A DNA stretch of 26,980 nucleotides, taken from contig CAZITB010000024.1 in NCBI GenBank assembly GCA_964542055.1, positions 1-26,980 of the forward strand. The letters are read 5' to 3'. This stretch comes from an uncultured Candidatus Kuenenia sp. Lineage in GTDB: Bacteria > Planctomycetota > Phycisphaerae > Sedimentisphaerales > CAMDDF01. Shown here piece after piece: positions 1-23,790 of this stretch (position 1 is its first letter; every line of letters begins with the position of its first letter). Both the position numbers and the translations under genes were made by a program. The notes under the pieces were generated by a model. The model saw only the letters and a program-made list of their open reading frames with translations, was not told where the DNA came from and ran no database searches.

Positions 1-1311
1 GTTGACACCTTGATTGAGAACTTAGAAAAACTCATTACTAAAAAACGAGACATCAAATTAGCTGCTATGCAGCAACTGCTTACCGGTAAAACTCGTCTGC
101 CCGGATTTACAGGGAAATGGGAAGAAATGACTTTAGGTGATGTAATATATGGCTGTTCAAGTGGCGCAACTCCTTCTCGAAGCAGACCCGAATTCTATAG
201 AGGTAATATTAGGTGGATTACAAGCGGTGAATTAAACTATGGTCGAATTTATGATACCGTAGAAAAAATAACAAAATTAGCAGTCCAATGCACGAGTCTT
301 AAAATCATTCCTGCTGGTACATTTTTAATGGCGATTACAGGTTTAGAAGCAGAGGGAACTCGTGGCAACTGTGGTATTGTTGGTGCTGATGCCGCGACTA
401 ATCAATCATGTATGGCGGTTTTTCCATCCGAAAAGTTATTGACCGAGTACCTGTTTTGTTATTATGTTCTAAGAGGGAAGTCACTTGCAATTCAATATTG
501 TCAAGGAACTAAACAACAGAGTTACACTGCAAAATTAGTAAAAATACTTCCTATATCTATGCCTGTTGATATTCAGGAACAAACCGCAATCTCTAATGTT
601 CTATCCGACATGGACGCTGAAATCCAAGCATTAGAAAAACGGCTTTCAAAAACCAGAGCAATAAAACAAGGTATGATGCAGGAGCTGCTGACGGGAAGAA
701 TCCGTTTAATCAAGCCTGAATCCAAATCAACTGAATCTCAAAAGAAACATAACTGGGCAATTGATGAAGCTGTAATAATCTCAACCCTAGTTGAAAAATT
801 TGGCTCAGAACAATACCCGTTGGGACGAAAGCGTTACACGAAAATGTCTTATCTGTTCCATCGCTATATTGACGGCAAAGCTGAAGGCTATGTAAAAATG
901 GCTGCTGGCCCTTACAATCCCAAGACGAAATACGGTGGAGTTGAAACTCTTGCAACAAAGAACAACTACATAAAGAATCACAAGAGTGGGCCGATGCAGG
1001 GATTTATCTCGTCAGATAATGTGCAGCAGGCTATTGACTATTTCAATAAATGGTATGGCGAAGATGCCCTGAAATGGTTGGAACAATTCCGCTATGAGAA
1101 AAACGACATTCTTGAATTATGGGCAACTGTGGATATGGCTGTAGAGGACTTGAGAAACACCCAAAAAGATATAACGGTGGCAAATGTCAAAACAGTCATT
1201 CGAAATAATAAAGAATGGAAGCCAAAGCTGAAAAGAGAGATATTTTCAGATGAGAATATTGAAAAAGCAATAAAAAAGACCCAGCAGTTATTTGCGGAGG
1301 GACAAGTATGA
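1..1311 (+). CDS. hsdS: Type I restriction-modification specificity subunit HsdS. The 5' end is cut by the window edge and the protein carries an extra ~195-aa C-terminal domain.
   Basis: Frame 1 is open from position 1 (VDTLIENLEKLITKKRDIKLAAMQQLLTGKTRLPGF), the HsdS central conserved coiled-coil repeat. A TRD-like region follows (~nt 100-580). The distal conserved repeat comes next (AISNVLSDMDAEIQALEKRLSKTRAIKQGMMQELLTGRIRL, ~nt 580-720). The ORF then continues ~195 aa beyond the normal HsdS end. The stop overlaps the hsdR start (ATGA at 1308-1311). Confidence 0.85.
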   Translation, partial: VDTLIENLEKLITKKRDIKLAAMQQLLTGKTRLPGFTGKWEEMTLGDVIYGCSSGATPSRSRPEFYRGNIRWITSGELNYGRIYDTVEKITKLAVQCTSLKIIPAGTFLMAITGLEAEGTRGNCGIVGADAATNQSCMAVFPSEKLLTEYLFCYYVLRGKSLAIQYCQGTKQQSYTAKLVKILPISMPVDIQEQTAISNVLSDMDAEIQALEKRLSKTRAIKQGMMQELLTGRIRLIKPESKSTESQKKHNWAIDEAVIISTLVEKFGSEQYPLGRKRYTKMSYLFHRYIDGKAEGYVKMAAGPYNPKTKYGGVETLATKNNYIKNHKSGPMQGFISSDNVQQAIDYFNKWYGEDALKWLEQFRYEKNDILELWATVDMAVEDLRNTQKDITVANVKTVIRNNKEWKPKLKREIFSDENIEKAIKKTQQLFAEGQV

Positions 1312-4300
1312 GCAGCGTCGGACAGAAGGAACGGATTACTCAGAACAGAATCATAGATCTGTTTCAAAACAAACTCAAATATGATTATCTGGGTAATTGG
1401 GTTGATCGTGATAACAACACTAACGTTGAAGAAAATCTTCTGAAAGACTGGCTGAAAAGGCAAGGCCACAGCGACAAAATCATCACAAAAGTGCTGCGTG
1501 AACTGGATCAGGCCAAAGCCATCGGCGGCGGTAAACGTCTTTACGAAGCAAATAAGGAAGTGCACGATAAACTCAGATATGGTGTGAAAGTAAAAGAAGA
1601 TGTCGGTCAGAAAAACCGTACAGTCTGGCTGATTGACTGGAAGAATCCTGATAAAAACGACTTTGCTATTGCTGAAGAAGTATCTATTAAGGGCGAGCAT
1701 AAAAAAAGGCCTGATGTTGTCATTTATGTCAATGGAATTGCTCTTGGTGTTTTGGAACTAAAGCGTTCAATCGTCTCTGTCGCAGAAGGTATTCGGCAGA
1801 ACCTTGATAATCAGAAAAAGACCTTTATCCGTCCTTTCTTTGCTACTGTTCAATTGGTCATGGCAGGTAATGACACGGAAGGTTTGAGATATGGTGTCAT
1901 AGAAACACAGGAAAAATATTATCTGCGATGGAAAGAACCGAATTGCATTGAAAATCCACTCGACAAAGAACTATGCCAGATCTGCAACAAAGCTAGATTC
2001 TTAGAACTGATACACGATTTTATTGTTTTTGATGCGGGGATCAAGAAAATCTGTCGGCATAACCAATACTTTGGTGTACATGCTGCTCAAGACCACGTGA
2101 GAAGACGAGAAGGTGGGATCATATGGCATACTCAAGGCAGTGGTAAAAGTTTGACGATGGTCTGGCTGGCTAAATGGATTCGTGAAAATGTAAAGAATTC
2201 CAGAGTGCTGATCATCACAGACCGGACAGAACTTGACGAGCAGATCGAAAAGATATTTAAGGGTGTAAGTGAAGACATCTACAGGACAAAAAGCGGAGCT
2301 GACTTGGTAAATGTGCTCAATGCAAATGCAGAATGGCTAATCTGTTCATTGGTACATAAATTTGGCAGACAGGAAGAAGGCGATGTTGATGAATTCATCA
2401 GAGACATCAAAAGCCACTTACCCAAAGACTTCTATGCAAAAGGTGAGATATTTGTGTTTGTAGATGAGTGCCATCGAACCCAATCGGGAAAACTGCACGA
2501 AGCGATGAAGGCAATTTTGCCGGGCGCGATGTTTATTGGCTTTACAGGCACACCACTTCTAAAAAAAGATAAAAAGAAAAGCATTGAGGTATTTGGGCCT
2601 TATATCCACACCTATAAATTCAACGAAGCTGTAAAAGATGAAGTCGTCTTGGATTTACGGTACGAAGCACGGGATATTGATCAAAATATCACATCTGAGC
2701 ATAAGATCGATCAATGGTTTGAATGCAAAACAAAAGGGTTAACAGATGTTGCTAAAGTTCAGCTAAAACAAAGATGGGGTACTTTGAAGAAAGTGCTCAG
2801 TGCACGCTCTCGATTGGAGAAGATTGTAGCTGATATCCTTATGGATATGGCCACCCGTGACCGTCTCGAAAGCGGAAGAGGAAATGCAATTCTGGTATCG
2901 GGTAGTATATATCAAGCGTGTCGTTTTTTTGAACTCTTTTCCAAAACTGATTTGGCCGGAAAATGTGCAATCATTACATCTTACAAGCCCTCTCCTGCTG
3001 ACATAAAAGGCGAAGAGTCAGGTGAGGGTATGACTGAAAAACTTCGCCAATATGATATTTATCGAAAGATGCTCGCAGAATTCTTCGACGAAAGTGAAGA
3101 AACTGCTATCAATAAAGTGGAGACATTTGAGCAGGCGATCAAGAAAAAGTTTATTGAGGAGCCAGGTCAGATGAAACTTTTGATCGTTGTGGATAAGCTG
3201 CTGACAGGTTTTGATGCTCCACCAGCAACGTATTTGTATATTGATAAGAAAATGCGAGACCACGGGCTGTTTCAGGCTATTTGTCGAGTTAATCGTTTAG
3301 ATGGCGATGACAAAGAATATGGTTACATTATTGATTATAAGGATTTATTCAAATCTCTCGAAAGGTCTATACATGACTATACTAGTGAAGCTCTTGATGG
3401 ATATGATCCCGAAGATGTTGATGGTTTGCTGAGTGACCGCCTTGAGAAAGCAAAAGAGCGATTGGAGGATGCGCGGGAGGCTATTAAAGCATTGTGCGAA
3501 CCTGTAGAAGCTCCTTATGACACTCAATCCTACCTGCGATTCTTTTGTACTTCTGATACATCTGATGTAGATATTTTGAAATCAAATGAGCCTAAACGTA
3601 TTGCGCTGTATAAAATGGCAGCAAGTCTAATCAGGGCATATTCAAATCTGGCAAATGAGATGCAGGAAGCTGGCTATACAGATGATGAAATTAGAACTAT
3701 AAAATCTGAGGTTGATCATTATGAAAAAGTTCGTACTGAAGTAAAAATGAATAGCGGAGATTATATTGATCTGAAATTATATGAGCCAGCGATGAGACAT
3801 CTTCTCGACACCTATATTCGAGCAGAAGATAGTGAAAAATTGTCCGCTTTTGATGACATGTCTTTGGTTGAGTTAGTAGTTGAACGAGGAGAGGATGCTT
3901 TCAATGAACTTCCACAAGGATTGCGTAATACAGAAGCGATGGCTGAAACTATTGAAAACAACGTTCGAAAAGTTATCATTGATGAAATGGCTGTTAATCC
4001 TAAGTATTATGAAAAAATGTCTGAATTGCTTGATGCTTTGATTCAAGAACGTAAGAAAGAGGCTATAGATTATAAAGCGTATTTGGCAAAGATTGTCGAA
4101 CTAACAAAACGAGTCAAAAAACCTGAAGCTAGCTCATATCCTAAAAATGTTGATACACCTGCAAGAAGAGCACTATACGATAATCTTGGCAAAGATGAAG
4201 AAGTTGCGATTTTAGTAGATACTGCTGTGAGAGAAAATAAGGAGCATGGCTTTAGGGGTAATCGTTTCAAAGAAAAGAAACTGATCAATGCCATAAAAAC

Positions 4301-4370
4301 TGTACTAAAGGATGATGAAAGCCTAGCTAAATCGGTATTAGAAATTGTCAAAAAACAAAATGAATACTAA
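1308..4370 (+). CDS. hsdR: Type I restriction enzyme R subunit HsdR (PD-(D/E)xK nuclease plus SF2 helicase motor).
   Basis: 1020 aa. N-terminal nuclease core PDVVIYVNGIALGVLELKRS. Helicase motif I WHTQGSGKSLTM, motif II/DEAH VFVDECHRTQSG, motif III FTGTPL. Size and order are typical of HsdR. 4-bp overlap with hsdS. Confidence 0.95.
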   Translation: MSSVGQKERITQNRIIDLFQNKLKYDYLGNWVDRDNNTNVEENLLKDWLKRQGHSDKIITKVLRELDQAKAIGGGKRLYEANKEVHDKLRYGVKVKEDVGQKNRTVWLIDWKNPDKNDFAIAEEVSIKGEHKKRPDVVIYVNGIALGVLELKRSIVSVAEGIRQNLDNQKKTFIRPFFATVQLVMAGNDTEGLRYGVIETQEKYYLRWKEPNCIENPLDKELCQICNKARFLELIHDFIVFDAGIKKICRHNQYFGVHAAQDHVRRREGGIIWHTQGSGKSLTMVWLAKWIRENVKNSRVLIITDRTELDEQIEKIFKGVSEDIYRTKSGADLVNVLNANAEWLICSLVHKFGRQEEGDVDEFIRDIKSHLPKDFYAKGEIFVFVDECHRTQSGKLHEAMKAILPGAMFIGFTGTPLLKKDKKKSIEVFGPYIHTYKFNEAVKDEVVLDLRYEARDIDQNITSEHKIDQWFECKTKGLTDVAKVQLKQRWGTLKKVLSARSRLEKIVADILMDMATRDRLESGRGNAILVSGSIYQACRFFELFSKTDLAGKCAIITSYKPSPADIKGEESGEGMTEKLRQYDIYRKMLAEFFDESEETAINKVETFEQAIKKKFIEEPGQMKLLIVVDKLLTGFDAPPATYLYIDKKMRDHGLFQAICRVNRLDGDDKEYGYIIDYKDLFKSLERSIHDYTSEALDGYDPEDVDGLLSDRLEKAKERLEDAREAIKALCEPVEAPYDTQSYLRFFCTSDTSDVDILKSNEPKRIALYKMAASLIRAYSNLANEMQEAGYTDDEIRTIKSEVDHYEKVRTEVKMNSGDYIDLKLYEPAMRHLLDTYIRAEDSEKLSAFDDMSLVELVVERGEDAFNELPQGLRNTEAMAETIENNVRKVIIDEMAVNPKYYEKMSELLDALIQERKKEAIDYKAYLAKIVELTKRVKKPEASSYPKNVDTPARRALYDNLGKDEEVAILVDTAVRENKEHGFRGNRFKEKKLINAIKTVLKDDESLAKSVLEIVKKQNEY

Positions 4371-5088
4371 ACATCATCACATTGAGGTAAATGGAATACC
4401 AGTGGAGATTGTCCGTAAGGACATAAAGAACCTTCATTTGGCGGTATACCCTCCTCATGGCCATGTAAGGGTAGCAACACCATTGCGGCTTGATGATGAA
4501 GCGGTTCGTCTAGCAGTGATTTCTCGTCTTGGTTGGATTCAGCGGCAGCAGGCCAATTTCAAAGATCAAGATCGTCAATCTGATCGTGAAATGGTCACAG
4601 GCGAAAGCCATTATGTCCAAGGCAAACGATATCGACTGGATGTAGTTGAGAAAAATGAGCCACCTGTAATAAGCATACGAAATAACAATACATTGGAATT
4701 ACAGGTGCGTCCCAATACAACACGAGTTAAGAAGCAGGAACTCTTGCAGGAATGGTATCGTCAGCGATTAAAAGAGCAGATTCCTTCCTTGGTTGTTAAA
4801 TGGGAACCGATTCTTGGGGTCTCGGTAGCTGAGTGGGGTGTAAAAAAAATGAAAACACACTGGGGCACTTGTAACATCCAAGCCCGAAGAATCTGGCTGA
4901 ATCTGGAATTAGCCAAGAAGTCTGTCGCTTGCCTCGAATATATACTAGTCCACGAAATGATTCATTTATTGGAGCGGCTGCACGATGAAAATTTCCAAGA
5001 ACTCATCGATTATCATATGCCTCAATGGAAATATTACAAGGATCAGCTTAATAGTATGCCGCTGGCCCATGAGGATTGGTTGTATTAA
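4360..5088 (+). CDS. DUF45 / M48-like (YgjP, SprT-like) zinc-dependent metal hydrolase, translationally coupled to hsdR.
   Basis: HExxH motif HEMIH near the C-terminus (LEYILVHEMIHLLERLHDENF) and a WGTC motif, both typical of COG1451/DUF45 proteins. The ATG at 4360 overlaps the hsdR stop (4368-4370). The ORF track extends to a TTG at 4345. Confidence 0.8.
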   Translation: MNTKHHHIEVNGIPVEIVRKDIKNLHLAVYPPHGHVRVATPLRLDDEAVRLAVISRLGWIQRQQANFKDQDRQSDREMVTGESHYVQGKRYRLDVVEKNEPPVISIRNNNTLELQVRPNTTRVKKQELLQEWYRQRLKEQIPSLVVKWEPILGVSVAEWGVKKMKTHWGTCNIQARRIWLNLELAKKSVACLEYILVHEMIHLLERLHDENFQELIDYHMPQWKYYKDQLNSMPLAHEDWLY

Positions 5089-5353: not shown

Positions 5354-7030
5354 ATGAGAATTAGCAAAATAAATATCGAAAATTACAAATGCTTCCAAGG
5401 TAAATTCACCTTAGAGCTTAATCCTGATGTAAATATTCTTGTCGGCAACAATGAATCTGGCAAGTCGACAATCTTAGAGGCTATCAACCTTGCACTTACA
5501 GGCATACTTAACGGGCGATATTTGAAGAATGAGCTAAGCCCATATCTTTTCAATCATCAAACAGTTGTTGATTACATTCAAAGCATTTCAAATGAATCAG
5601 TTAAAACACAGGCTCCTCCCTTCATCAGAATCGAAGTCTTTTTGAACTGTCCTGATGCCGCACGTTTTGAAGGAAATGGGAACAGCGAAAAAATTAATGC
5701 ATCCGGTGTTTCACTAATGATAGAATTTGATCCTGACTATCAATCTGAATATGAGGAGCTAATCAAATCAGGGGAACTCAAAGCAATTCCAATCGAATAT
5801 TATCGTATCTCATGGCAATCATTTGCGAGAGAGACAATTACTGCTCGCAGTATTCCTTTCAAATCTGTTTTAATTGACTCATCATCAACACGCTATCAAA
5901 ATGGATCAGATATTTATATTTCTCGGATAATTCAGGCAGATCTTGACGATACTGACAAAGCGGCCATTTCGCAAGAGTATCGAAAAATGAAAGAGATGTT
6001 CGGAGAGGCTGATGCGGTAAAAGCTATTAATGAGAAGATTAAATCTAAATCTAAAATTTCAGATAAGTCATTGTCTATTTCTGTTGATTTGGCCACTCAT
6101 AATTCCTGGCAAACATCACTAATGACATATATTGACGAAATACCGTTTCACCATGCAGGCAAAGGCGAGCAATGCGTTGTAAAAACCAATCTTGCACTGG
6201 GACACAAAAAAAGCCAAGAAGCCAATCTGATACTTTTGGAAGAACCGGAAAATCACCTGTCTCATACGCGACTCAATCAGCTTTTGAAAAATATTGAGGA
6301 TGAATGCAAAAAATGCATAAAGAAACCGGATGACTGCGAGAAGTGCGAAAATTGCAAAAACAAACAGATCATAATTTCAACTCACAGCAACTTTGTTGCA
6401 AATAAATTAGGAATTGGAAATCTTATCTTCCTAAATGACCATGCATCATCAAGGCTTACAGACTTAAGTGACAGTACTTATGAATTTTTCAAAAAACTTC
6501 CAGGTTACCAAACTCTTCGTCTGTTATTATGCAGAAAAGCAATTTTGGTTGAAGGCCCATCAGATGAGTTGGTTTTTCAAAAGGCATATATGAACGCTAA
6601 TGGTGGGAAGTTGCCTATCGAAGACGGTATAGATGTCATATCAGTTGGTTTGAGCTTTAAACGGTTTCTTGAAATAGCAAAAGCTGTAAATCAGCAAGTA
6701 GCTGTTATAACTGACAATGACGGGGATTTTGCAAATAATATCACTAAGAAATATGATGATTACAAAGATATCACATTTATTTCGATATTTTCTGATCAGA
6801 GAAATGCCCTGAAAACTCTCGAACCTCAGTTTGTTGAGGCAAATAAAGATAATTTGACTGAATTATGTCAAGCCATAAAATTAGATAACAACTCCTATGA
6901 CACAGAAGCCAAAGTCTCTGATTACATGGAAACACATAAAACAGATTGGGCACTATGTGTATTTGAATCAGATGCAAATTTAGCCTTTCCAAAATATATT
7001 ACTGATGCTGTGGTATGGTGTAATGAGTGA
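5354..7030 (+). CDS. gajA: OLD-family ATP-dependent endonuclease, GajA-like (N-terminal ABC-type ATPase plus C-terminal Toprim).
   Basis: Walker A GNNESGKST and ABC signature-like AGKGEQ. Walker B LILLEEPENHL and H-loop ISTHS. Toprim motifs LVEGPSDE and VITDNDGD. 558 aa. A UvrD-like helicase gene follows immediately and overlaps it, which is the class 2 OLD / Gabija arrangement. Confidence 0.75.
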   Translation: MRISKINIENYKCFQGKFTLELNPDVNILVGNNESGKSTILEAINLALTGILNGRYLKNELSPYLFNHQTVVDYIQSISNESVKTQAPPFIRIEVFLNCPDAARFEGNGNSEKINASGVSLMIEFDPDYQSEYEELIKSGELKAIPIEYYRISWQSFARETITARSIPFKSVLIDSSSTRYQNGSDIYISRIIQADLDDTDKAAISQEYRKMKEMFGEADAVKAINEKIKSKSKISDKSLSISVDLATHNSWQTSLMTYIDEIPFHHAGKGEQCVVKTNLALGHKKSQEANLILLEEPENHLSHTRLNQLLKNIEDECKKCIKKPDDCEKCENCKNKQIIISTHSNFVANKLGIGNLIFLNDHASSRLTDLSDSTYEFFKKLPGYQTLRLLLCRKAILVEGPSDELVFQKAYMNANGGKLPIEDGIDVISVGLSFKRFLEIAKAVNQQVAVITDNDGDFANNITKKYDDYKDITFISIFSDQRNALKTLEPQFVEANKDNLTELCQAIKLDNNSYDTEAKVSDYMETHKTDWALCVFESDANLAFPKYITDAVVWCNE

Positions 7031-8159
7031 GAATAGACTTGTTATTGCGGCAGCCGGTTCAGGCAAGACAACATATCTTGTTAATGAATCAATGAAAAGA
7101 GACGGAAAAGTCTTGATTCTTACTTACACACTATCTAACGAAGATGTAATAAAAAGACGATTAATTCAGAAAGCTGGTTGCATACCTCAAAATATAACAG
7201 TTAATACATGGTTTTCTTTTTTACTTCAGCATGGCGTGAAGCCTTATCAGGGCAGCATTGATGATTCAATGTTTGACTATCATATCCGCGGAATGCTACT
7301 TGTAAATAAGCAATCTGGATTTCGCTGTAAAACAGGAAAACATCCTGTTTATTGGAAAGAAAGCAACATAGATAAACACTATTTCAGCAAAAGAAATAAA
7401 ATCTATTCTGATAAAATTTCAAAATTTGTATTCAAATGTAATACTCAGTCGGGCGGAGCAGTCATTGATCGACTTGCTCGTATATACGATCATGTTTTCA
7501 TTGATGAAGTTCAGGATTTAGCAGGATACGACCTAGAATTGATCAAATTATTATTCAGTTCTTCAATTTCAGTCCTGCTTGTTGGTGACCCGCGACAAGT
7601 AACCTATCTGACACATTTAGAACGAAAACACGCAAAGTATCAAAACGGTAAAATTCGCAAATTCGTAGAAAATGAACTTGAAAAAAATATTATTTGCAAC
7701 ATAGACGAATCAACACTTCAAGCATCTCATCGATGTTGTGATCCAATCTGTAAATATGCATCTCGACTTTATCCGGATATGCCGGAAACAACTTCTTGTT
7801 CATGTTGTGGCCAAAGTACAATCAATCATCAAGGGATATTTTTGGTTAAGCCAGATCAAATACAAGAATACACTCGAAAATATAATGTAACACAATTAAG
7901 GTGGGATAGAAAGTCAGGCGTTCTTCCTTCTATACCGGTAATGAATTTCGGGGAAGCCAAAGGAGAAACCTTCGACAGAGTTCTTATATACCCAACGAAA
8001 GATATGGCAAAGTGGGTCGAAAATGGTTCTACGTCTTTATCTGATGCTTCGAGGGCAAAATTTTATGTTGCAATCACGCGTGCTCGTTACAGTGCAGCTA
8101 TAGTTTTGAATTATGATTCAGCTCAAAGTTATGAAGGAACCAGTATGTATGTGTCTTGA
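7023..8159 (+). CDS. gajB: UvrD/PcrA-like SF1 helicase, GajB-like, compact (~378 aa).
   Basis: Motif I AAAGSGKTT, motif II FIDEVQDL, motif III VGDPRQ and motif VI VAITRAR. The start is taken as the ATG at 7023 (MSENRL...), overlapping the gajA stop in an ATGAGTGA context. An upstream in-frame ATG at 7005 is also possible. Confidence 0.7.
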   Translation: MSENRLVIAAAGSGKTTYLVNESMKRDGKVLILTYTLSNEDVIKRRLIQKAGCIPQNITVNTWFSFLLQHGVKPYQGSIDDSMFDYHIRGMLLVNKQSGFRCKTGKHPVYWKESNIDKHYFSKRNKIYSDKISKFVFKCNTQSGGAVIDRLARIYDHVFIDEVQDLAGYDLELIKLLFSSSISVLLVGDPRQVTYLTHLERKHAKYQNGKIRKFVENELEKNIICNIDESTLQASHRCCDPICKYASRLYPDMPETTSCSCCGQSTINHQGIFLVKPDQIQEYTRKYNVTQLRWDRKSGVLPSIPVMNFGEAKGETFDRVLIYPTKDMAKWVENGSTSLSDASRAKFYVAITRARYSAAIVLNYDSAQSYEGTSMYVS

Positions 8160-8529
8160 CATATAGCAACTCTTTTTCTCTCCCCGTTAACCGCCTCCAT
8201 CTCTGTTTTTCTAAAACACCCAGAAATCGCCCGTGTCGAGAGAGGTTTGTATCTCGCCTATACACTCGAGTTCGGATCGATGGGCTATCCTGACCGGCTT
8301 TCTGGCGGTCATGTGGAAGATTGGATGTTAAGTCGTTGCCAGATAAGCATTAATCTGGCAGTTAACAGGTTCGAAATCGGGTGTTTGAAATGATCTCAAA
8401 TGCATGTGTTAGAACTGGTATGGTTCGGGGAGCTTTTTTATGCGCTAAAAACGGGGTTTAGGGTTTACTTACTTTTGACAAAGGATGCAATGCCTTAAAA
8501 TTTTAAATCATTCGGTGGCAGTGAAGGCT

Positions 8530-9009
8530 TTATGGAAATGGACTTGGCCGGTTGGGGTATTTTCGTAAAATGGCAAAGCGAGGAAATTTTCCTGGGGGGA
8601 CGCCTTGGTGTTCTAGTTTTTGGGGGCTTTTGAAGCCGAATCGCTGGTAAAAATTTGGATCGCCGACAAGAACGCAACCTTTTGCACCCCTGTCCTTTAA
8701 AATGCGGATACCTTCATTTATCAGCTTTGTTCCGATGCCTTGCCGCTGGAGGGCAGGTATTACAGATATCGGGCCTATGCCGTACCAGTTCAGGCTGCTA
8801 TCTGTAAACGTTACCGGTGAGAAGGCGATGTGCCCTACAACTTTACCATCCGTCTCGGCTACAAGAGAAAGGCTCAGGGCATCGGCGGCTCGCAAGGCAT
8901 TTATAATAAATTGCTCGGTGTTACGGCTGTATGGATGATTTTCAAATGCGGCCTTGGTAATTTCCGTAATTTGATCCCAATCGTCAGGGGTTTCGGGGCG
9001 GATCATCAT
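8530..9009 (-). CDS. GNAT family N-acetyltransferase.
   Basis: 159 aa. Acetyl-CoA binding motif A QRQGIGTKLINEG and the conserved fold pattern VVGHIAFSPV ... GCVLVGDPNFYQRFGF. Confidence 0.8.
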   Translation of the reverse strand: MMIRPETPDDWDQITEITKAAFENHPYSRNTEQFIINALRAADALSLSLVAETDGKVVGHIAFSPVTFTDSSLNWYGIGPISVIPALQRQGIGTKLINEGIRILKDRGAKGCVLVGDPNFYQRFGFKSPQKLEHQGVPPGKFPRFAILRKYPNRPSPFP

Positions 9010-9416: not shown

Positions 9417-10067
9417 TTAAGACAAATCGACGGAAGTTATACCTTCTTTTATGGCATACTTTGTGAGATTTGCCAGGCTGTCCAGATCAAGCTTGTTCAT
9501 TATTCTTGTTCGGTGGCCTTCTACGGTTTTTGGGCTGATGTGGAGAATCATGCCTATTTGTTTGGTCGTCTTGCCTTCGGCGAGCAACTGAAGGACCTCA
9601 CGCTCCCGGTCGGATAACTTCGCAAAGACATTTGAATTGGCTTCGCTATTGATCATATAATTTTCGACAACGATACCGGTTATGGCTGGGCTGATGTAGT
9701 TTTTGTCATCGACTACTATTCTAATGGCATCAATCAGTTCCTGGTATTCACAATCTTTAAGTAGATATCCCTTTGCGCCGGCCCTGAACATTTCATGTAT
9801 CATCTTTTTATTAGAGTGCATCGATAAGGCTATTATCCTGGTATTTGGGAACTCTTTTGAAATCTGGCGTGTCGCCTCTATTCCGTTTAGTTCGGGCATG
9901 GCGATATCCATGATCACCACGTCTGGTGAAGTTTCTTTAACCATCTGCAGAATCTGATGGCCATTTTCCGCTTCTCCAATTACCTGCATATCGTTTTCGT
10001 TATCAAATGCCTGAGCCAATCCATGTCTTAAAACTTTGTGGTCATCTGCCAAAGCTATCCTGATCAT
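9417..10067 (-). CDS. NarL/FixJ (LuxR-type HTH) two-component response regulator.
   Basis: REC domain with the DD...D...K pattern (IALADDH, VVIMDIAMP, IIALS, AKGYLLK). C-terminal LuxR HTH (LSDREREVLQLLAEGKTTKQIGMILHISPKTVEGHRTRIMNKL). 19 bp downstream of the kinase gene. Confidence 0.9.
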   Translation of the reverse strand: MIRIALADDHKVLRHGLAQAFDNENDMQVIGEAENGHQILQMVKETSPDVVIMDIAMPELNGIEATRQISKEFPNTRIIALSMHSNKKMIHEMFRAGAKGYLLKDCEYQELIDAIRIVVDDKNYISPAITGIVVENYMINSEANSNVFAKLSDREREVLQLLAEGKTTKQIGMILHISPKTVEGHRTRIMNKLDLDSLANLTKYAIKEGITSVDLS

Positions 10068-10086
10068 CCTGACATCCTTTCTGTTA

Positions 10087-13000
10087 TTAAAAATCGGCGG
10101 GCACAGATAGATTTACCTCGGTGCCTTTGCCTTGTACTGATTCAATTTTCACTTTTCCTCCCACATTGCTGATCCTTTCTTCCAAACTGAAAAGCCCGTA
10201 TCCTCTTGCTTTCTTTTTCGAGTTTAATCTTTTTACATCAAAGCCCCTGCCGTTATCTTTTACACGAACTTTTAGCTTTCCATCCAGACAAGCGAGGGCA
10301 ATTTGAACTTCACTGGCCTGGCTGTGTTTGGAGACATTGACAAGAAGTTCCCTAATAGTCCTGTAAATCAGAATTTTCAGTTCCTCGGAGATATCCTTCA
10401 TATCGCCGCTGCTGTGGAAATGTATTTGATATTCATTTTTATTAGAAAACTCTTCGGCAAGTTCTTCAATGGCAGCTTCAAGACCTAACGTATAAAGAGT
10501 AGCTGAGCTCAAGTCAAAAGTCAATGTCCTGGTCTGGTTAACGGCTTCTTTGATTTGCATCCACACCTCTTCAAGTGAAGGCCTGATATCTTCGGGGGCT
10601 TTTTTCATTATGATGCCAAGTTCCTTCTTAGAAAATGACAGTAACTGCCCGATCGAATCGTGAAGTTTTAGTGCGAAGTCTCTCTTTTCTCTTTCTTCTG
10701 CAAAGATCAGTTCTGAAGAAAGGTCTCTTAGCCTGGTTTGGTTTTCAAGTAATTTCTTCTCAGCCTCTACCCTGGACAAAACTTCATCCTGGAGAACTTC
10801 TACTGTTTTTTGCAGCTGGTAAGTCCTGTCGCGTACACGTGATTCAAGGACTTTATTGAGATCCCTTAGCTTTTGTTCGCTTTGGCGCAATGCTACTTCA
10901 GCTTTGTGTACTTGCGTCATATCAATAGCGATACTTACGTGGAAATCCTGGCCGGGATCCACTAATGCTGCAGCACCTAGATATGGAGTTTGACCGCCGT
11001 CAGGTTTGATAAATACTCTCTCATATCCAGCTATTTTACCCTCTCTGAAAAGCTTTTCTGTAAAGTACTTTTGTTCAGCCAGCGATTCAGGGGCTAAGCA
11101 TTGGACCCAGTTTATTTTACCCGCCTCGTAATCCTCTCGGGTGTAGCCCATCATCCGAAGCATTTCGTCATTTACATAAGAGATGTTTCCATCGGTATCC
11201 CCAAAAGCAACTCCTATAAGATTAGCATCTGCGATTCGTCGATATATGGCTTCACTTCTTTTCAAGGCTTCTTCGGTTTCCTTGCGCTGAGTTATATCCT
11301 GTGTTGTCCCAAAGCCGCTTATAATCTGGCCGTTTTCCCCATATTCCAGTTCTGCCCTTTCCAAGACCCATTTGATTTCGCTGCCTACAACAATACGATG
11401 TTCTAAATAGTAGTAGTCCTGATTTAAAGACTTCCAAATATCATTAATCATTTCCCTGTCATCAGGATGAACGATATTTAAAAAATCTTCATAGGTAACT
11501 TTTTGTCCTTTTGGTATTCCAAAGATTCGATAAGTCTCATCTGACCAGCTAAACTGCTTTGTCTTAATATCAAATCTCCAACTGCCCAATTTTGCTACTT
11601 TTTGGGCGGTCTTTAAATCATCAGTGCTACTTTGGAGTTTTTTCTCCATCTGTCTGGATTCAGTAACATCTCGGATGATTTTCAGTTTAGAAGGTTGATC
11701 GGCTCCAAGCTGCAGAAAAGGTACTTCTACGGCATCATAAATTCTGTTATTTGAGGGACAGGTAAATTCTCGTATTATGTTCTTTCCTTGAATTACTTCT
11801 TCGAAGGCACAGTTTTCGCATGGTTGTGAATAACCGTAAAGATACTCAAAACATTTACGATTGTTTATAGAGCCGAAAATTTTTCGCATAGCTGGATTTA
11901 TGTATTCAATTTTATGCTCTTGATTGACTATATAAATTCCATCGGGTATAGCGTCGAGGATTTTTCTGGTTTTTTCGTACTCGTCATAAATTGCTTTAGT
12001 ATTAAGAAAATCCCTCAAACTTATGTTAATTAACTCGTTAAAAGCTGATATAAGTCTAAGATCATTTTTATTGAATGTTTCTTTTCTGGCAAGGGCGAAA
12101 ATTCCACAGACCTGTTCATTTATCAGCAGTGGAGATAAAGCCAAGTTTAAACTTGCATTTTCCTTGCCTTGAGCTCTGATGACCATTTTTTTATATTCGA
12201 CGACTTCATTTATATATGTTTTTAAATCCTGGCTGTTTAGCTTTTCTTTAAACGAATCTTCATTCGGAACATAAACATCGGTGTAATTTTTTTTGTAATT
12301 TGAAAGCATTGTTATCGCTGAATTGTCAATATTTAAAAGTTTGTTACAATCTTTCAAAATCGACTGAGCAACAGTTTCGAATTTCTGGCCGGTTAGAACG
12401 TGTCGGTTTGACGTTAGAAGAGCTTCAACTTCAGAAGTTCTGGATTTGGCTGCCTCAAGGGCTTTGTTTAATACGATTTCATTTTTTTTAAGATCACCAA
12501 ACAGTGTATTATAAGGATTTTCAAGTTGCGTCTTGATCAGGGCCCGGTAAAGCAGATAGAAAGCTACAATCTTAAAAAAATGACCTAATATTATGATGTA
12601 CTCGTAAACATTGGTGTATAAGGTGAAGAAAATTTCTGAAGCAGTGGAAAATAACAGGCTTAATACCAAATATATTGATATGGATTTTTCGAAACGGCTT
12701 CGGTTAAAAAAAATAAGGATCGCTGCTGAAACGAAAATCGCGCAAATGATATATTCACTGATAATTTTAAAAGTTGTCAGCCCCTGTCCTTCGATCAGGC
12801 AGTCTGGGAAAATTTTCCAGTTAAAAATGGAAAGGATTATCAATGTACATATAATCGAATAAGACAGAAAAACTGCATGTTTGTTGACTTTCCTGCTAAA
12901 GTAAAAAGAGGCAATCAAAAAAGTTAAACCATGTATGTATCTTGCTGCTATCCAAAGCTGAGTTGGGGTATTTGCTTCTTCGGCAAAAACTCCCATTCCT

Positions 13001-13254
13001 TCATAAGAAAGTGTATGCAGAAGATCAAAAATTCCAATAAAGAAAAAAGCAATACCTATAAATGTCAGAAAGCTGTTTTTGGCGAATTTCTGGCTGCTCC
13101 AGACAATTACAAACATCGCAACTGCAACTGCAATGCTAAACAGTTCCACAATAGTATGAAAAAGAAGGAAGTTAAACGTGCTGATCCAGTAAAGCAACCA
13201 TAAGAAAACAGCAGAGTAAAATAAAAACCATAATTTGTCTTTTTTGACTTCCAT
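10087..13254 (-). CDS. Large hybrid-architecture sensor histidine kinase: polytopic membrane sensor domain, GAF, multiple PAS domains, HisKA_3 and HATPase_c.
   Basis: ~8 hydrophobic helices at the N-terminus. A GAF-like segment and at least three PAS-like segments follow. H-box KLHDSIGQLLS is NarL-partner HisKA_3 type. ATPase motifs DNGRGFD and GYGL. The start is placed at the ATG at 13254 (MEVKKDKL...) because the predicted promoter (-10 at 13313-13318) lies inside the longer 13377 ORF extension. Confidence 0.85.
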   Translation of the reverse strand: MEVKKDKLWFLFYSAVFLWLLYWISTFNFLLFHTIVELFSIAVAVAMFVIVWSSQKFAKNSFLTFIGIAFFFIGIFDLLHTLSYEGMGVFAEEANTPTQLWIAARYIHGLTFLIASFYFSRKVNKHAVFLSYSIICTLIILSIFNWKIFPDCLIEGQGLTTFKIISEYIICAIFVSAAILIFFNRSRFEKSISIYLVLSLLFSTASEIFFTLYTNVYEYIIILGHFFKIVAFYLLYRALIKTQLENPYNTLFGDLKKNEIVLNKALEAAKSRTSEVEALLTSNRHVLTGQKFETVAQSILKDCNKLLNIDNSAITMLSNYKKNYTDVYVPNEDSFKEKLNSQDLKTYINEVVEYKKMVIRAQGKENASLNLALSPLLINEQVCGIFALARKETFNKNDLRLISAFNELINISLRDFLNTKAIYDEYEKTRKILDAIPDGIYIVNQEHKIEYINPAMRKIFGSINNRKCFEYLYGYSQPCENCAFEEVIQGKNIIREFTCPSNNRIYDAVEVPFLQLGADQPSKLKIIRDVTESRQMEKKLQSSTDDLKTAQKVAKLGSWRFDIKTKQFSWSDETYRIFGIPKGQKVTYEDFLNIVHPDDREMINDIWKSLNQDYYYLEHRIVVGSEIKWVLERAELEYGENGQIISGFGTTQDITQRKETEEALKRSEAIYRRIADANLIGVAFGDTDGNISYVNDEMLRMMGYTREDYEAGKINWVQCLAPESLAEQKYFTEKLFREGKIAGYERVFIKPDGGQTPYLGAAALVDPGQDFHVSIAIDMTQVHKAEVALRQSEQKLRDLNKVLESRVRDRTYQLQKTVEVLQDEVLSRVEAEKKLLENQTRLRDLSSELIFAEEREKRDFALKLHDSIGQLLSFSKKELGIIMKKAPEDIRPSLEEVWMQIKEAVNQTRTLTFDLSSATLYTLGLEAAIEELAEEFSNKNEYQIHFHSSGDMKDISEELKILIYRTIRELLVNVSKHSQASEVQIALACLDGKLKVRVKDNGRGFDVKRLNSKKKARGYGLFSLEERISNVGGKVKIESVQGKGTEVNLSVPADF

Positions 13255-13291
13255 GGATAGCACATATTCAAAAAATTTAGAGACCGTTAAA

Positions 13292-13312
13292 ATCCTGAAT
13301 CCTGAATCCTGA
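13292..13312. repeat. Perfect tandem heptamer (ATCCTGA)x3. On the minus strand this reads TCAGGAT x3.
   Basis: It was read directly in the sequence, immediately adjacent to the kinase -10 element in the divergent kinase/trpB2 intergenic region. Confidence 0.9.
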
Positions 13313-13340
13313 ATTATACCACAATTATCGAATAAATCAA
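13313..13340 (-). promoter_or_regulatory. Sigma70-like promoter for the sensor kinase operon (minus strand): TTGATT, 16 bp spacer, TGgTATAAT extended -10.
   Basis: The reverse complement of 13335-13340 is TTGATT. The reverse complement of 13313-13318 is TATAAT, preceded by TGG. The predicted TSS falls inside the heptamer repeat at 13292-13312. Confidence 0.5.
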
Positions 13341-13376
13341 CATATAAGAAGTTGACAATTTTTCTCTGATAAATCA

Positions 13377-13405
13377 TTGAATTATCAATTGAAATACTGT
13401 ATAAT
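13377..13405 (+). promoter_or_regulatory. Sigma70-like promoter for trpB2: TTGAAT, 17 bp spacer, TATAAT.
   Basis: TTGAAT at 13377-13382 and TATAAT at 13400-13405. The ATG is at 13443. Confidence 0.55.
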
Positions 13406-13442
13406 TTTTCGAAATTTGATTATTTCTGAATTGGAGTTATTT

Positions 13443-14831
13443 ATGGATAGAAAAATTCTTTTAAATGAAAAGGATATTCCGCGTCAATGGTATAATCTGG
13501 CTGCTGACCTTCCAAATCCTCCTCAGCCGCCGCTGGGACCTGATGGCAAACCTATCACTCCTGAAATGCTTGCACCTGTATTTCCGATGAATATTATCGA
13601 ACAGGAAGTCAGTACTCAAAGATGGATAGATATACCGGAAGAAATACTTGATATTTTATACAGATGGAGACCGGCACCTCTCAGGCGAGCGGTTTACCTG
13701 GAAAGGTATCTCGATACTCCGGCAAAGATATACTACAAGGATGAAAGTACTTCACCGGCGGGCAGCCATAAACCCAATACTGCCGTTGCCCAGGCCTGGT
13801 ATAATAAACAGTTCGGTATTGAAAGGATCACCACTGAAACCGGAGCCGGGCAATGGGGATCTGCACTTGCTTTTGCGTGTCAGCTTATTGGCCTGGAATG
13901 TAAGGTTTTCATGGTGCGGATCAGTTTTGATCAGAAACCGTTTAGAAAATTTATGATGAATGTCTGGGGTGCTAATTGTGTGGCAAGCCCAAGCAGTGAG
14001 ACTAAAACCGGGCAGAAGATACTGGAAGAACAACCTGATACTCCGGGTTCACTTGGAATTGCTATTTCAGAAGCTGTTGAACAAGCAGTTACTGATGAAA
14101 CCGGCAAAACCAAATATTCGCTTGGTAGCGTTTTGAATCATGTAATGCTCCACCAAAGTATTATTGGGCTGGAAGCGAAAAAACAGCTTGCGATGGTTGG
14201 CGTGGACAAGCCAGATATTGTAATTGGCTGTGCAGGGGGCGGAAGTAATTTTGCGGGTATTTCGTTCCCGTTTGTAGCGGATAAAATCAATGGAGCCGAT
14301 ATCGAGATCATACCGGTGGAACCGACAGCATGTCCGACATTGACCAAGGCACCTTTTGCTTATGACCATGGCGATACGGCATGTATGACTCCTCTGCTTG
14401 CGATGCATTCGCTCGGTCATGCGTTTGTACCGGCACCTTTCCATGCCGGCGGGCTGCGTTATCATGGTATGGCACCGCTTGTGAGCCAGGCTGCAGTGGA
14501 AGGGCTTCTTACGCCAAGGTCTTATAATCAGCTGAAATGTTATGAAGCTGCGATGACCTGGGCAAATACTGAAGGAACGATCTGTGCTCCAGAAACCAGC
14601 CATGCCATTGCAGGTGCCATTGATGAAGCACTAAAAGCCAAAGAAGAAGGCAAAGAAAAGAATATTCTGTTCTGTTATTCGGGACATGGCTTGATGGACC
14701 TTACCGGATATGATGCTTATCTATCTGGTAAACTTACCGATTATGAACTTTCTCAGGAAGATTTTGATAAGTTCACATCGTGTTTTAAAGATATGCCAAA
14801 GCCGCCTGTTAATAAAAGTGGTAAGTGGTAA
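13443..14831 (+). CDS. trpB: TrpB2-type tryptophan synthase beta-like PLP-dependent enzyme, stand-alone.
   Basis: PLP-lysine motif SPAGSHKPNTA. A glycine-rich loop GCAGGGSNFAG. Length ~462 aa with the N-terminal extension typical of TrpB2. GGAG RBS 7 nt upstream of the ATG at 13443. No trpA is adjacent. The ORF-track start at 13377 is upstream of the predicted promoter. Confidence 0.85.
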   Translation: MDRKILLNEKDIPRQWYNLAADLPNPPQPPLGPDGKPITPEMLAPVFPMNIIEQEVSTQRWIDIPEEILDILYRWRPAPLRRAVYLERYLDTPAKIYYKDESTSPAGSHKPNTAVAQAWYNKQFGIERITTETGAGQWGSALAFACQLIGLECKVFMVRISFDQKPFRKFMMNVWGANCVASPSSETKTGQKILEEQPDTPGSLGIAISEAVEQAVTDETGKTKYSLGSVLNHVMLHQSIIGLEAKKQLAMVGVDKPDIVIGCAGGGSNFAGISFPFVADKINGADIEIIPVEPTACPTLTKAPFAYDHGDTACMTPLLAMHSLGHAFVPAPFHAGGLRYHGMAPLVSQAAVEGLLTPRSYNQLKCYEAAMTWANTEGTICAPETSHAIAGAIDEALKAKEEGKEKNILFCYSGHGLMDLTGYDAYLSGKLTDYELSQEDFDKFTSCFKDMPKPPVNKSGKW

Positions 14832-14851
14832 AAAGATTTTATTAAAAGCAT

Positions 14852-14893
14852 AAACCCCTGTGAGATTAATTTCTTTCAGGGGTTTTCTTTTGA
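14852..14893. terminator. Bidirectional rho-independent terminator between the convergent trpB2 and DEAD-box helicase genes.
   Basis: Stem AAACCCCTG (14852-14860) pairs with CAGGGGTTT (14877-14885) across a 16-nt loop. TCTTTTG follows on the plus strand and an A-rich run (TTAAAAGCATAA) precedes it, giving a U-run on either strand. The helicase stop codon lies in the loop. Confidence 0.6.
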
Positions 14894-16095
14894 GTAGATT
14901 TATTTTTTCTTTTGAATGGTCCCGACCTTTTCTTGCCTTTGAAAGTCCTTTTACTGCTTTTCTTGCCGGTCCTTACATTTTCCAGATCAGGTTTTTCGCC
15001 GATCCATTTGGGAGTTATATTACTGTTTTTGATGATAGATTTTAGAACACTTAAGTCACTGTTGCCATAAAAGGTTACTGCCGTTCCCTTTCTGCCCATT
15101 CTGGCGGTTCTGCCTGTTCTATGGGTGTATATTTCTGGATTGTCCGGGAAATCATAATTTATGACATGTGTAACTTCGCTGAAATCGAGCCCCCTGCTTG
15201 CGATATCGGTTGCGACGATGTACTGAATCTTTTTCTTTTTAAATCTATTGAAAATTGAACTTCTTTTGCTCTGCTCAATGCCGCCATGTATCATTTCGCA
15301 AGATGAAAACTTTTCTTTCAACTGGTCATAGGTTCTTTCGCAGTTAGACCTTGATTTACAGAAAATTATTGCCTGCTCAGGCTTTTCGCTGTCGAGGTAA
15401 TTGCATAATTTTTCAATTTTTTTTCGGCCGAACGCTTTTAGAAAGACATGATCCAAACTCTGAGGGGATACCTGATCTAAATTCAATTCAACAACAACAG
15501 GGTCTTTGAGATATTTCTTTGCTAATTTTTTTATGCTTTCGGGCATTGTAGCAGAAAAAAGAAGAGTTTGATGTTCGTGGACCAAACATGAAAATATAAA
15601 TTCAATATCGGTTAAAAAACCCATATTCAGCATTTCATCTGCTTCATCGAGAACAAATGTTCTAACCTCTGACAGACTTAAAGGGCTGTTGTAGAGCAGG
15701 TCTATCAAACGTCCGGGAGTAGCAACAAGGACATGTACTCCGTGTTCGAGTTTCGCCTTTTGTGTATGAATAGAAAATCCACCGTAAACCGCAAATGGTG
15801 CAATTTTATTGAATTTGCATAGATCAGCAATCGAGCTTACATATTGCAAGGCAAGCTCACGCGTTGGAACCATTACGAGTGCCTGAACAGCTTTAAGATC
15901 GGGATCGACAGCTTGTACTATCGGGACCCCGCAAGCGGAAGTTTTTCCTGAACCGGTTTCAGCCAGACCGATCATATCTTTGCCGGCAATTATTTCACTG
16001 TAAGTCTTCTCCTGTATAGGGGTCAGGTCTTCATAGCCAAGCTTTTCCAGCGCTTTTAAAATCTCGGGCTTAAGTTCTAAATCTGTGAATTTCAT
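14866..16095 (-). CDS. DEAD-box ATP-dependent RNA helicase with a basic C-terminal tail.
   Basis: Q-motif region (FTDLELKPEIL...TPIQ), motif I AETGSGKT, motif II VLDEADEM, motif III SAT and motif VI HRTGRTAR. Lys/Arg-rich C-terminus. The start is placed at the ATG at 16095 (MKFTDLEL...), since the longer ORF has no support. Confidence 0.9.
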   Translation of the reverse strand: MKFTDLELKPEILKALEKLGYEDLTPIQEKTYSEIIAGKDMIGLAETGSGKTSACGVPIVQAVDPDLKAVQALVMVPTRELALQYVSSIADLCKFNKIAPFAVYGGFSIHTQKAKLEHGVHVLVATPGRLIDLLYNSPLSLSEVRTFVLDEADEMLNMGFLTDIEFIFSCLVHEHQTLLFSATMPESIKKLAKKYLKDPVVVELNLDQVSPQSLDHVFLKAFGRKKIEKLCNYLDSEKPEQAIIFCKSRSNCERTYDQLKEKFSSCEMIHGGIEQSKRSSIFNRFKKKKIQYIVATDIASRGLDFSEVTHVINYDFPDNPEIYTHRTGRTARMGRKGTAVTFYGNSDLSVLKSIIKNSNITPKWIGEKPDLENVRTGKKSSKRTFKGKKRSGPFKRKNKSTQKKTPERN

Positions 16096-16127
16096 GAAAT
16101 TCTTGTTTCCAGTTTTATATGTGAAAT

Positions 16128-16155
16128 TACCTCCGGCTAATATCAACCGGAGGTA
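16128..16155 (-). other. Stable 9-bp stem-loop (TACCTCCGG ... CCGGAGGTA) lying 3' of the flotillin gene, in the leader of the DEAD-box helicase gene.
   Basis: Perfect inverted repeat with a 10-nt loop. It lies 33 nt upstream of the helicase ATG and 11 nt past the flotillin stop. It is followed by an AU-rich stretch rather than a clean U-run. Confidence 0.5.
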
Positions 16156-16166
16156 TAACAATTACA

Positions 16167-17663: not shown

Positions 17664-17752
17664 TTAAACTCCTTTTACAAATAAATTCCAATTTAAACAA
17701 TGATTCTAAACTAAAATCAGCCCAATTCAAACCTTTTTCTCAAAATCTTACA

Positions 17753-20939: not shown

Positions 20940-21028
20940 TTGTTTCTTCCAAAATTATATATCTTTTAATTTAACTTAAAACCGCCATTTCTACAAGCTA
21001 ATATCCTGAAATATCAATAATTGGCCGC

Positions 21029-21057
21029 TTGATTTACATACAACGTTTTGATATGAT
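21029..21057 (+). promoter_or_regulatory. Sigma70-like promoter for miaB: TTGATT, 17 bp spacer, TATGAT.
   Basis: TTGATT at 21029-21034 and TATGAT at 21052-21057. The ATG is at 21089. Confidence 0.45.
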
Positions 21058-21088
21058 AATCGTTTTGAAAATTCAGGGAAATTTAGCC

Positions 21089-23568: not shown

Positions 23569-23722
23569 TTTTGATCAATTCCATTTAATCTAAAAGCTTG
23601 AATTTCACTTATTTACATAATACAATACTTTTTCTAATATGAAAATCTTTTTCATAAGGAGGATTAAATTACATGCTCCAAAGTTATCACTTTTGAGCTG
23701 AATTTTTGTTTTTTTTGGTTAT

Positions 23723-23751
23723 TTGACAAAATTATGCAATAAATTTATAAT
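23723..23751 (+). promoter_or_regulatory. Consensus sigma70 promoter for the TolC-MFP efflux operon: TTGACA, 17 bp spacer, TATAAT.
   Basis: TTGACA at 23723-23728 and TATAAT at 23746-23751. The ATG is at 23791. Confidence 0.6.
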
Positions 23752-23790
23752 CTTAAACGTTTGTTTGAATAATTGAAGAATATTTTTGGA

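Follow-up and report, generated by a model that had tools for sequence, protein, structure and literature searches.

The first 1,311 nt of a 26,980-nt stretch from an uncultured Candidatus Kuenenia sp. (contig CAZITB010000024.1, assembly GCA_964542055.1; the whole stretch is called the window below) contain the 3' part of hsdS, the gene for the specificity subunit of a Type I restriction-modification (R-M) system. The subunit carries a C-terminal extension beyond the normal end of HsdS, and profile comparisons together with a predicted structure show that the domain in this extension is homologous to the C-terminal domain (CTD) of the antitoxin DarG, the part of DarG that sequesters DarT. The extension lies immediately 5' of hsdR, in the slot where a sister operon encodes the DarG CTD.

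To our knowledge, Type I specificity subunits are regarded as minimal proteins of two target-recognition domains (TRDs) and two helices. The architecture described here is unusual in that a large, cross-phylum family bears an extra domain that is as conserved as the subunit-contact helices. No earlier description of an HsdS-DarG-CTD fusion was found in the literature, and the domain is matched by no Pfam model. The DarG CTD itself is already known, as are Type I operons hosting DarTG and other cargo (PMC12255303).

Homology to DarG's C-terminal domain

The homology was seen with several profiles. With hhalign, the extension family (147 sequences) and the DarG-CTD family (118 sequences) aligned end to end over 163 columns with a probability of 92% (E 6e-7), and the extension profile aligned with DarG of enteropathogenic Escherichia coli (EPEC) over DarG residues 189-352 of 355 (94%, E 9e-8). 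The PADLOC model of DarG matched the extension over positions 153-326 of 329 (E 1e-6). The NCBIfam model of DarG (NF048014) matched over positions 160-337 of 338 (E 4e-5), with a score of 22.9 bits that is far under the cut-off of 250. Comparison of the extension model with DarG by Foldseek gave a probability of 1.0 and template-modelling (TM) scores of 0.57-0.59. In the PDB, DarG was picked up by structure comparison alone, and was missed by sequence searches with phmmer or a profile.

Besides the end-to-end profile homology, the extension and the DarG CTD (DarTG2, PDB 7YK3 chains B/D) have in common a size of ~190 aa and a set of motifs that are strongly conserved in both families, namely K..(Y/W)L..R, GPY, (L/M)ELLATVD, and (K/R)xxxF(S)D. 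The CTD of EPEC DarG corresponds to residues ~127-330 in the numbering of PMC7003065 and to ~170-355 of the 355-aa RefSeq annotation.

The two domains differ in charge and in context. The DarG CTD is described, in the passage of PMC11481870 that cites Deep et al. 2023, as an acidic single-stranded DNA (ssDNA) mimic that fills the DNA groove of DarT. DarG CTDs are indeed acidic, with a median isoelectric point (pI) of 5.5 and a net charge of -4. The extension family, in contrast, is basic, with a median pI of 9.1 and a net charge of +5, about +8 being concentrated in a winged-helix-like part; where DarG has ECSLLEIQK, for instance, the extension has PLGRKRYTK. Whereas the DarG CTD is fused to a macrodomain and has a darT partner beside it, the extension is fused to HsdS and has no darT nearby. 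No N-terminal ADP-ribosyl-glycohydrolase macrodomain was found in the protein or in the related loci. The extension thus has the fold and the sequence features of the DarG CTD, but on net charge (pI 9.1 versus 5.5) it does not belong with the acidic ssDNA mimics.

Proteins of ~200 aa that consist of a DarG-type CTD only also occur (P0277, P0306, P0360 and others), one of which, of 199 aa, is a hypothetical protein at NCBI. These may be orphan antitoxin domains or truncated gene calls. The extension also weakly matches the C-terminal part of a long HsdM model of PADLOC (PDLC03039, MTase_I; E 8e-4, positions 518-656 of 708), and some Type I methyltransferase subunits may carry a related domain.

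The extension as a part of HsdS

On the + strand, frame 1 stays open between base 1 and the TGA at 1309-1311. As the window opens within hsdS, the 5' part of the gene lies upstream. The ORF listed at 10..1311 (433 aa) begins at the first TTG and is only the 3' part of the gene. The hsdS product of intact relatives has 600-670 aa, and the full protein should have about 610 aa. The original prediction, made from the letters alone, had described a tail of ~195 aa beyond the normal end of HsdS. Its coordinates, its sequence and the ATGA overlap with hsdR are all correct, and the tail is where it was placed; the protein length of 433 aa, however, is that of a fragment.

Positions 1..717 (+) encode the central conserved helix, TRD2, and the distal conserved helix ending in ...QGMMQELLTGRIRLI. 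This part matches Methylase_S of Pfam (PF01420, E 1.8e-17) and Specificity_I of PADLOC (E 6e-84). In a model of the 436-aa translation by AlphaFold2, helices 2-26 and 191-231 enclose a mixed alpha/beta TRD. The protein thus has the TRD flanked by conserved coiled-coil helices, and the end ...LLTGxxRL, of a Type I specificity subunit. Methylase_S and many Specificity_I models stop at residue ~236-240 of the translation (nt ~717). The HsdS structure of M. jannaschii (1YF2) terminates in ...LLTGKVRVK and HsdS of EPEC in ...LLTGKTRLI (...QGMMQELLTGKTRLI), whereas the window HsdS passes its normal end, ...LLTGRIRLI (...QGMMQELLTGRIRLI), and goes on into KPESKSTESQKKHNW... / KPESKSTESQKKHNWAIDEAV... 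The extension comprises residues 240-436 (nt 718-1308), that is, 197 codons in frame up to the hsdR overlap, where the ATG of hsdR at 1308 and the stop of hsdS form ATGA. With this overlap, and with hsdM, which falls upstream of the window, lying right before the extended hsdS in nearly all related loci, the genes form an operon.

The possibility had been raised that a frameshift joins two genes. The same continuous ORF is present in dozens of independent assemblies, at least 65 separate genomes having the domain at the C-terminus of an HsdS of ~610 aa, and the GC content is continuous, being 0.39-0.41 on either side of the junction between hsdS and the extension. Nor is the tail low-complexity or disordered, the domain being modelled with a mean predicted local distance difference test (pLDDT) of 93 and a predicted TM (pTM) score of 0.88. 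The protein is a genuine Type I specificity subunit with a fused C-terminal domain.

A search with the tail only returned 54 clusters, of which those with a source name are called S subunits. In a scan of one genome per GTDB species, at least 150 relatives were found in Planctomycetota, Chloroflexota, Nitrospirota, Proteobacteria, Bacteroidota, Acidobacteriota, Firmicutes, Spirochaetota and other phyla, the closest being in a Sedimentisphaerales metagenome-assembled genome (75% identity). An exhaustive search of 1.8 billion representatives, of clusters defined at 50% identity, gave 822 clusters at E<=1e-3, of which 316 also reached E<=1e-30; the domain was C-terminal in all of the best 150. 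In the related loci (86 in number, L001-L086), about 65 of the 74 matched ORFs are continuous over 550-670 aa, with the domain at the extreme C-terminus. The median distance of the domain end from the stop is 1 residue in the family. Two further homologue searches yielded chiefly gene calls that were short or truncated, with only the closest relatives, and no other domain architectures; tblastn of the extension against plasmids gave no match.

Gene callers often truncate or split these hsdS genes. For example, P0012 is called as 222 aa within an ORF of 625 aa. Because of such truncated calls, many database entries look like small stand-alone proteins; the short calls are an annotation problem, not a frameshift. 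In two related loci (L002 8792-10669 and L001 8954-10732), the public calls keep only the last ~220-240 aa of the extended HsdS, and the TRD part is either left out of the calls or placed on the wrong strand.

Antisense ORFs at 710-958, 805-981 and 1092-1700 were taken as spurious, as they overlap strongly conserved coding sequence of the + strand. No RNA, promoter or terminator signal above shuffle expectation was found in 1-1600, and no Rfam family was found anywhere in the window.

The hsdS|hsdR junction and DarTG

The HsdR of the window is 61% identical, over its full length, to HsdR of EPEC's RptR-RMS-DarTG-M48 (RRDM) island. This island (RptR-HsdM-HsdS-DarT-DarG-HsdR-M48) was described in PMC12255303, and in EPEC E2348/69 the locus has the order rptR-hsdM-hsdS-darT-darG-hsdR-M48. 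Because of the HsdR identity and the order darG-hsdR in EPEC, the extension is seen to occupy the slot of the DarG CTD, immediately 5' of hsdR in the same operon lineage.

The shared lineage is evident from the orthology of HsdR, the terminal M48/YgjP peptidase, and the use of the hsdS|hsdR junction as a cargo slot. The RRDM island and the related E. coli operons also have a nearly identical distal helix in HsdS, and in them, too, the M48 peptidase comes last and the junction takes defence cargo; other E. coli relatives have DUF262/GmrSD genes in this gap. They differ from the window in that their HsdS has the ordinary length of 453-463 aa, and the DarG CTD, when present, is in a separate two-domain antitoxin beside DarT. 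In the window, the CTD-like domain is within HsdS and hsdR follows directly.

The core of the related loci consists of hsdM (~813 aa), the extended hsdS (~623 aa), hsdR (~1028 aa) and the peptidase gene (~238 aa). Every member of the HsdS fusion family falls into this one Type I lineage, whose order is hsdM-hsdS-[0-5 cargo genes]-hsdR-M48 peptidase. Among the 59 loci in which the cargo interval was counted, hsdR directly follows the extended hsdS in 21, as in the window, and one to five ORFs lie between them in 38. The cargo includes Fic, RhuM-Fic, Shedu SduA, McrBC, GmrSD, PDC-S39 (DUF7380/DUF4209), a NucS-like nuclease, and a DUF4062/HATPase_c_4 protein. Therefore, the junction is a hotspot for embedded defence cargo. 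The middle part of the DUF4062/HATPase_c_4 protein resembles domains associated with prokaryotic Argonautes.

Neither darT nor a macrodomain was found in the window or within 10 kb in the 86 related loci, the sole marginal match to DarT being an OmpH; in the window, DarT was sought by scanning ORFs of at least 90 aa and by tblastn of the whole stretch. None of the 86 loci with the extension has DarTG at the junction, versus 12 of 54 RptR-linked Type I loci (PMC12255303).

Fold and conservation of the extension

The domain (~185 aa) was modelled with AlphaFold2 from an alignment of 55 sequences. The predicted topology is two helices and a beta hairpin, which resemble a winged helix, followed by a second hairpin and a six-helix bundle. 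The original prediction had named two helices and a turn; WAIDEAVIISTLVEKF and RKRYTKMSYLFHRYID are indeed predicted to be helices, and AAGPYNP follows them.

A flexible linker, KPESKSTESQK... (718..750, +), joins the domain to HsdS. It is ~10 residues long here and varies in the family (median 25 aa, quartiles 22-28), where it consists of unrelated low-complexity sequences with a column conservation of 0.28. The basic, winged-helix-like subdomain 1 (751..1011, +) bears the motifs PLGRKRYTKxSYLxHR and KKAAGPYNP, and the helical bundle, subdomain 2 (1012..1308, +; helices 341-435 in the model), bears WLEQFR, LELLATVDMA and EWKxKLxRxxFSD and reaches the C-terminus of the protein. The model of the 436-aa fragment has a pLDDT of 92 and a pTM of 0.60, and only residues 240-246 are below a pLDDT of 50. 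Because of this low pTM despite the high pLDDT, and of the disordered and variable linker, the tail comes out as a separate, independently folded module on a flexible tether.

Pairwise identity averages 0.54 in the extension, against 0.52 in the distal conserved helix and 0.18 in TRD2. In a full-length alignment of 62 sequences, 24 of the 26 invariant columns fall in the extension. As judged from these alignments, the extension is as conserved as the helices that contact the other subunits, and is under strong constraint rather than decaying. This conservation is independent of the DNA specificity of the TRDs and of the neighbouring cargo.

Relationship to Panacea

From its helices and the GPxxP turn, the extension had been proposed to resemble the DUF4065/Panacea antitoxin domain. 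Neither the extension nor any of 55 homologues matched PF13274, even at E<=10, while 10 of 10 phage Panacea proteins used as a positive control did. No Pfam family at all matched these sequences, and Foldseek found no match of the extension among the phage proteins of BFVD. When trimmed, larger alignments were compared with hhalign, the extension family and ten Pfam-verified Panacea proteins aligned with a probability of 5% (E 0.007). This alignment covers the very region of the motifs that had been pointed out (extension 19-63, Panacea 14-64), and pairs RKRYTKMSYLF...AAGPYNP with LKLQKLVYY...WxYGPVVP.

The DarG CTD is closer to Panacea. EPEC DarG (L099 6645-7709) matches PF13274 over residues 191-274 with 21.5 bits against a cut-off of 25.7 (E 4.8e-4), 3 of 40 DarG relatives match this family, and hhalign aligns the DarG CTD with the same Panacea stretch with a probability of 21% (E 1e-3). 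As canonical DarG gives a sub-threshold match, these comparisons support the view that the DarG CTD is a borderline relative of Panacea and that the two form a superfamily unannotated in Pfam. In agreement, DUF4065 proteins were stated to be homologous to the DarG CTD in a 2026 paper (PMC13621843). The resemblance of the extension to Panacea would thus be genuine but remote, existing only transitively through the DarG CTD and only at the level of the superfamily. Of the proposal, the antitoxin-type domain, the signal in the motifs and a possible superfamily-level link stood, while membership in PF13274 did not.

In the alignment with SocA_Panacea domains (PanA, SocA, GepA), the ...K(L/M)xYL... 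helix, the beta hairpin, and the GP(Y/V)xP turn of the extension fall in register with the Panacea core, and both are protein-binding modules of toxin-antitoxin and defence loci. Panacea is smaller, having ~110-150 aa versus ~185 aa for the extension with its extra beta hairpin and helical bundle. Panacea also has a dedicated toxin partner, whereas the extension has none; the bicistronic pairing with a toxin is not seen, the next gene being hsdR in the window, and hsdR (21 loci) or diverse cargo (38 loci) in the relatives.

Co-variation with operon partners

In Mantel tests on 39 complete loci, the divergence of the extension correlated with that of HsdM (rho 0.54, p 0.0005) and of the peptidase (rho 0.30), but not with that of HsdR (rho 0.04, p 0.28). 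HsdM and HsdR correlate with each other (0.55). The tracking of HsdM could be caused by recombination at the cargo junction or by co-evolution with HsdM. The HsdR of the window is collinear with HsdR of E. coli systems without the extension. The idea of a regulator specific for HsdR was dropped in view of this collinearity and the lack of co-variation, and that of docking of specific cargo in view of the equal conservation of the domain with and without cargo.

Possible roles of the extension

The reading that we favour, with a probability of about 0.5, is that a domain of the DarG-CTD fold was fixed on the methyltransferase module of one Type I lineage, where it took on the new role of a tethered binding arm. 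The domain and the DarG CTD would have a common ancestry that goes back to an event at the hsdS|hsdR junction. The likeliest route would be in-frame capture of the 3' half of darG with loss of darT and the macrodomain, though the reverse direction is possible. The winged-helix-like half would then have turned strongly basic, and the acidic ssDNA mimicry of DarG would have gone. The arm would belong to the M2S methyltransferase core and have one conserved ligand, very tentatively a nucleic acid or an acidic protein, and would serve the R-M complex as a recruitment or sensing module, not as an antidote to a neighbouring toxin. A binding arm is suggested because the domain is basic, is conserved to the level of the HsdM-holding helices of HsdS, is indifferent to TRD specificity and to cargo, and in its divergence tracks HsdM and not HsdR. 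A DarG-style plug into a basic DNA groove is unlikely, because the charge of the extension is opposite to that of the DarG CTD.

Several points weigh against this reading. The identity between DarG and the extension is only ~22% (BLASTP E 0.006), so that the homology rests on profiles and structure. Some members of the family are acidic, the pI ranging from 5.5 to 10.0. The idea of a nucleic acid or acidic partner derives from nothing beyond net charge and the winged-helix-like topology, and such a ligand is putative and of low certainty. The search for darT covered the window and 10 kb around the related loci, and the domain may act as an antitoxin in trans. The Mantel correlation could arise simply because hsdM and hsdS are linked on the same side of a recombination hotspot. 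Finally, in a crude neighbour-joining tree of HsdR, the E. coli systems without the extension nest among those that bear it, so that the domain may have been gained, lost or transferred in either direction.

It is possible, albeit unlikely, that the domain is an orphan neutraliser. Its target would be a DarT-type ADP-ribosyltransferase from another place in the genome, from an incoming element or from a phage, which it would sequester. The R-M module would then be immune to, or anti-addicted against, DarTG cassettes competing for the hsdS|hsdR slot. The homology to the DarT-binding domain extends over the whole domain and includes the core motifs K..L..R, GPY and ELLATVD; the CTD of EPEC DarG is on its own able to bind DarT and rescue cells (PMC7003065); orphan proteins that are DarG-like or mimic antitoxins are known in phages and other elements (PMC11481870, PMC11825919, PMC13309987); and the extension and DarTG appear to be mutually exclusive at the junction (0/86 versus 12/54). 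However, the charge is opposite to that of the acidic ssDNA mimic as the cited passage of PMC11481870 presents it, above all in the corresponding N-terminal half, the 10 kb around the members contain no darT, and conservation across phyla without a cognate toxin in cis is unusual for an antitoxin.

It is quite unlikely that the tethered domain is a guard or sensor, with a basic face that would capture either an acidic factor from a phage or plasmid or a phage nucleic-acid structure and thereby switch the Type I complex or its cargo. The acidic factor could be, for example, an anti-restriction protein that mimics DNA, like Ocr or ArdA, or a counter-defence protein resembling DarG. If this were true, the restriction enzyme would have a built-in infection sensor derived from a toxin-antitoxin module.

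A precedent for the physical and functional coupling of a Type I complex to a latent toxin at the same position in the operon is provided by EcoprrI and PrrC, an anticodon nuclease whose gene lies inside a Type I operon and which the R-M complex masks. PrrC differs from the extension in that it is a separate protein and the toxin itself, with no antitoxin-fold domain on HsdS, and there is no evidence of a masked toxin in the window. On this model, or on that of PanA/CapRel-type sensing, the domain would be a Panacea-type antitoxin or sensor that restrains a toxic activity, of the adjacent cargo or of HsdR, until a phage trigger arrives. We rate this, too, as quite improbable. The domain stands immediately before cargo (Fic/Doc, Shedu, McrBC, GmrSD, PDC-S39 or similar) in 38 of the 59 loci; Panacea domains pair with many unrelated toxins and were proposed to be sensory (PMC8832971, PMC10440598); and the extension would be related to Panacea transitively through the DarG CTD (PMC13621843). 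On the other hand, the direct test with PF13274 fails, the domain is equally conserved in the 21 cargo-free loci and the window, and a single conserved surface could not serve cargo of such diversity, the sequence being without the partner-specific variation of antitoxins. With respect to HsdR, there is no co-variation (rho 0.04), and the protein is collinear with HsdR of the extension-less E. coli systems and has no matching extra domain. The original prediction had taken a Panacea fusion to suggest a neutralisable toxin or a sensing module in the complex; this finds little support in a window without an adjacent toxin gene, and the basic charge argues against DarG-style neutralisation.

That the tail is a non-functional remnant (a decaying fragment, in frame by chance, of a darG that was deleted) or a fusion of two genes through an error of assembly or sequencing, as its position exactly at that of the darG 3' end in EPEC and the frequent splitting and truncation of these genes by public gene callers might suggest, is effectively refuted by the same continuous ORF in dozens of independent assemblies from many phyla, by the 54% mean pairwise identity, 24 invariant columns and pLDDT-93 fold, which are incompatible with decay, and by the lack of a compositional break.

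With its homology to a toxin-binding domain in the very slot where E. coli embeds DarTG, the extension ties a restriction enzyme evolutionarily to a toxin-antitoxin system, and suggests in-situ exchange of modules at this junction hotspot. Should DNA, a phage factor or a toxin prove to be bound by the domain, Type I R-M would gain a new layer of control or sensing. The domain is also a clean marker for the operon lineage, and it explains the frequent mis-splitting of hsdS gene calls.

Other genes in the window

The hsdR gene (1308..4370, +; 1020 aa) matches HSDR_N, SWI2_SNF2 and a T1R_D3-like domain of Pfam. Its 3' end is overlapped by 26 nt by the gene for a YgjP-like/M48-type metallopeptidase (4345-5088, +), which has an HExxH motif and matches YgjP-like of Pfam (E 8e-56) and also SprT-like. 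The peptidase gene is the conserved last gene of the operon, and has this place after hsdR in the E. coli relatives as well as in 59 related loci. No tested function of this peptidase was found in the papers examined.

A complete Gabija system, GajA (5354-7030, +; PADLOC E 1e-212) and GajB (7005-8159, +; E 3e-144), comes right after the Type I operon, so that a defence island takes up the first 8 kb of the window. The remainder (9417-13377 on the - strand and 13377-25656) looks like ordinary chromosome. It encodes a MASE3-PAS histidine kinase and a LuxR-type response regulator, a pyridoxal phosphate (PLP) enzyme, a DEAD-box helicase, an SPFH protein, an AMP-binding enzyme, a hydrolase, a MiaB-like radical-SAM enzyme, CorA, and an outer-membrane efflux protein. 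The GC content is ~0.36-0.41 in the defence island and has climbed to ~0.47 by nt 8400-9000.

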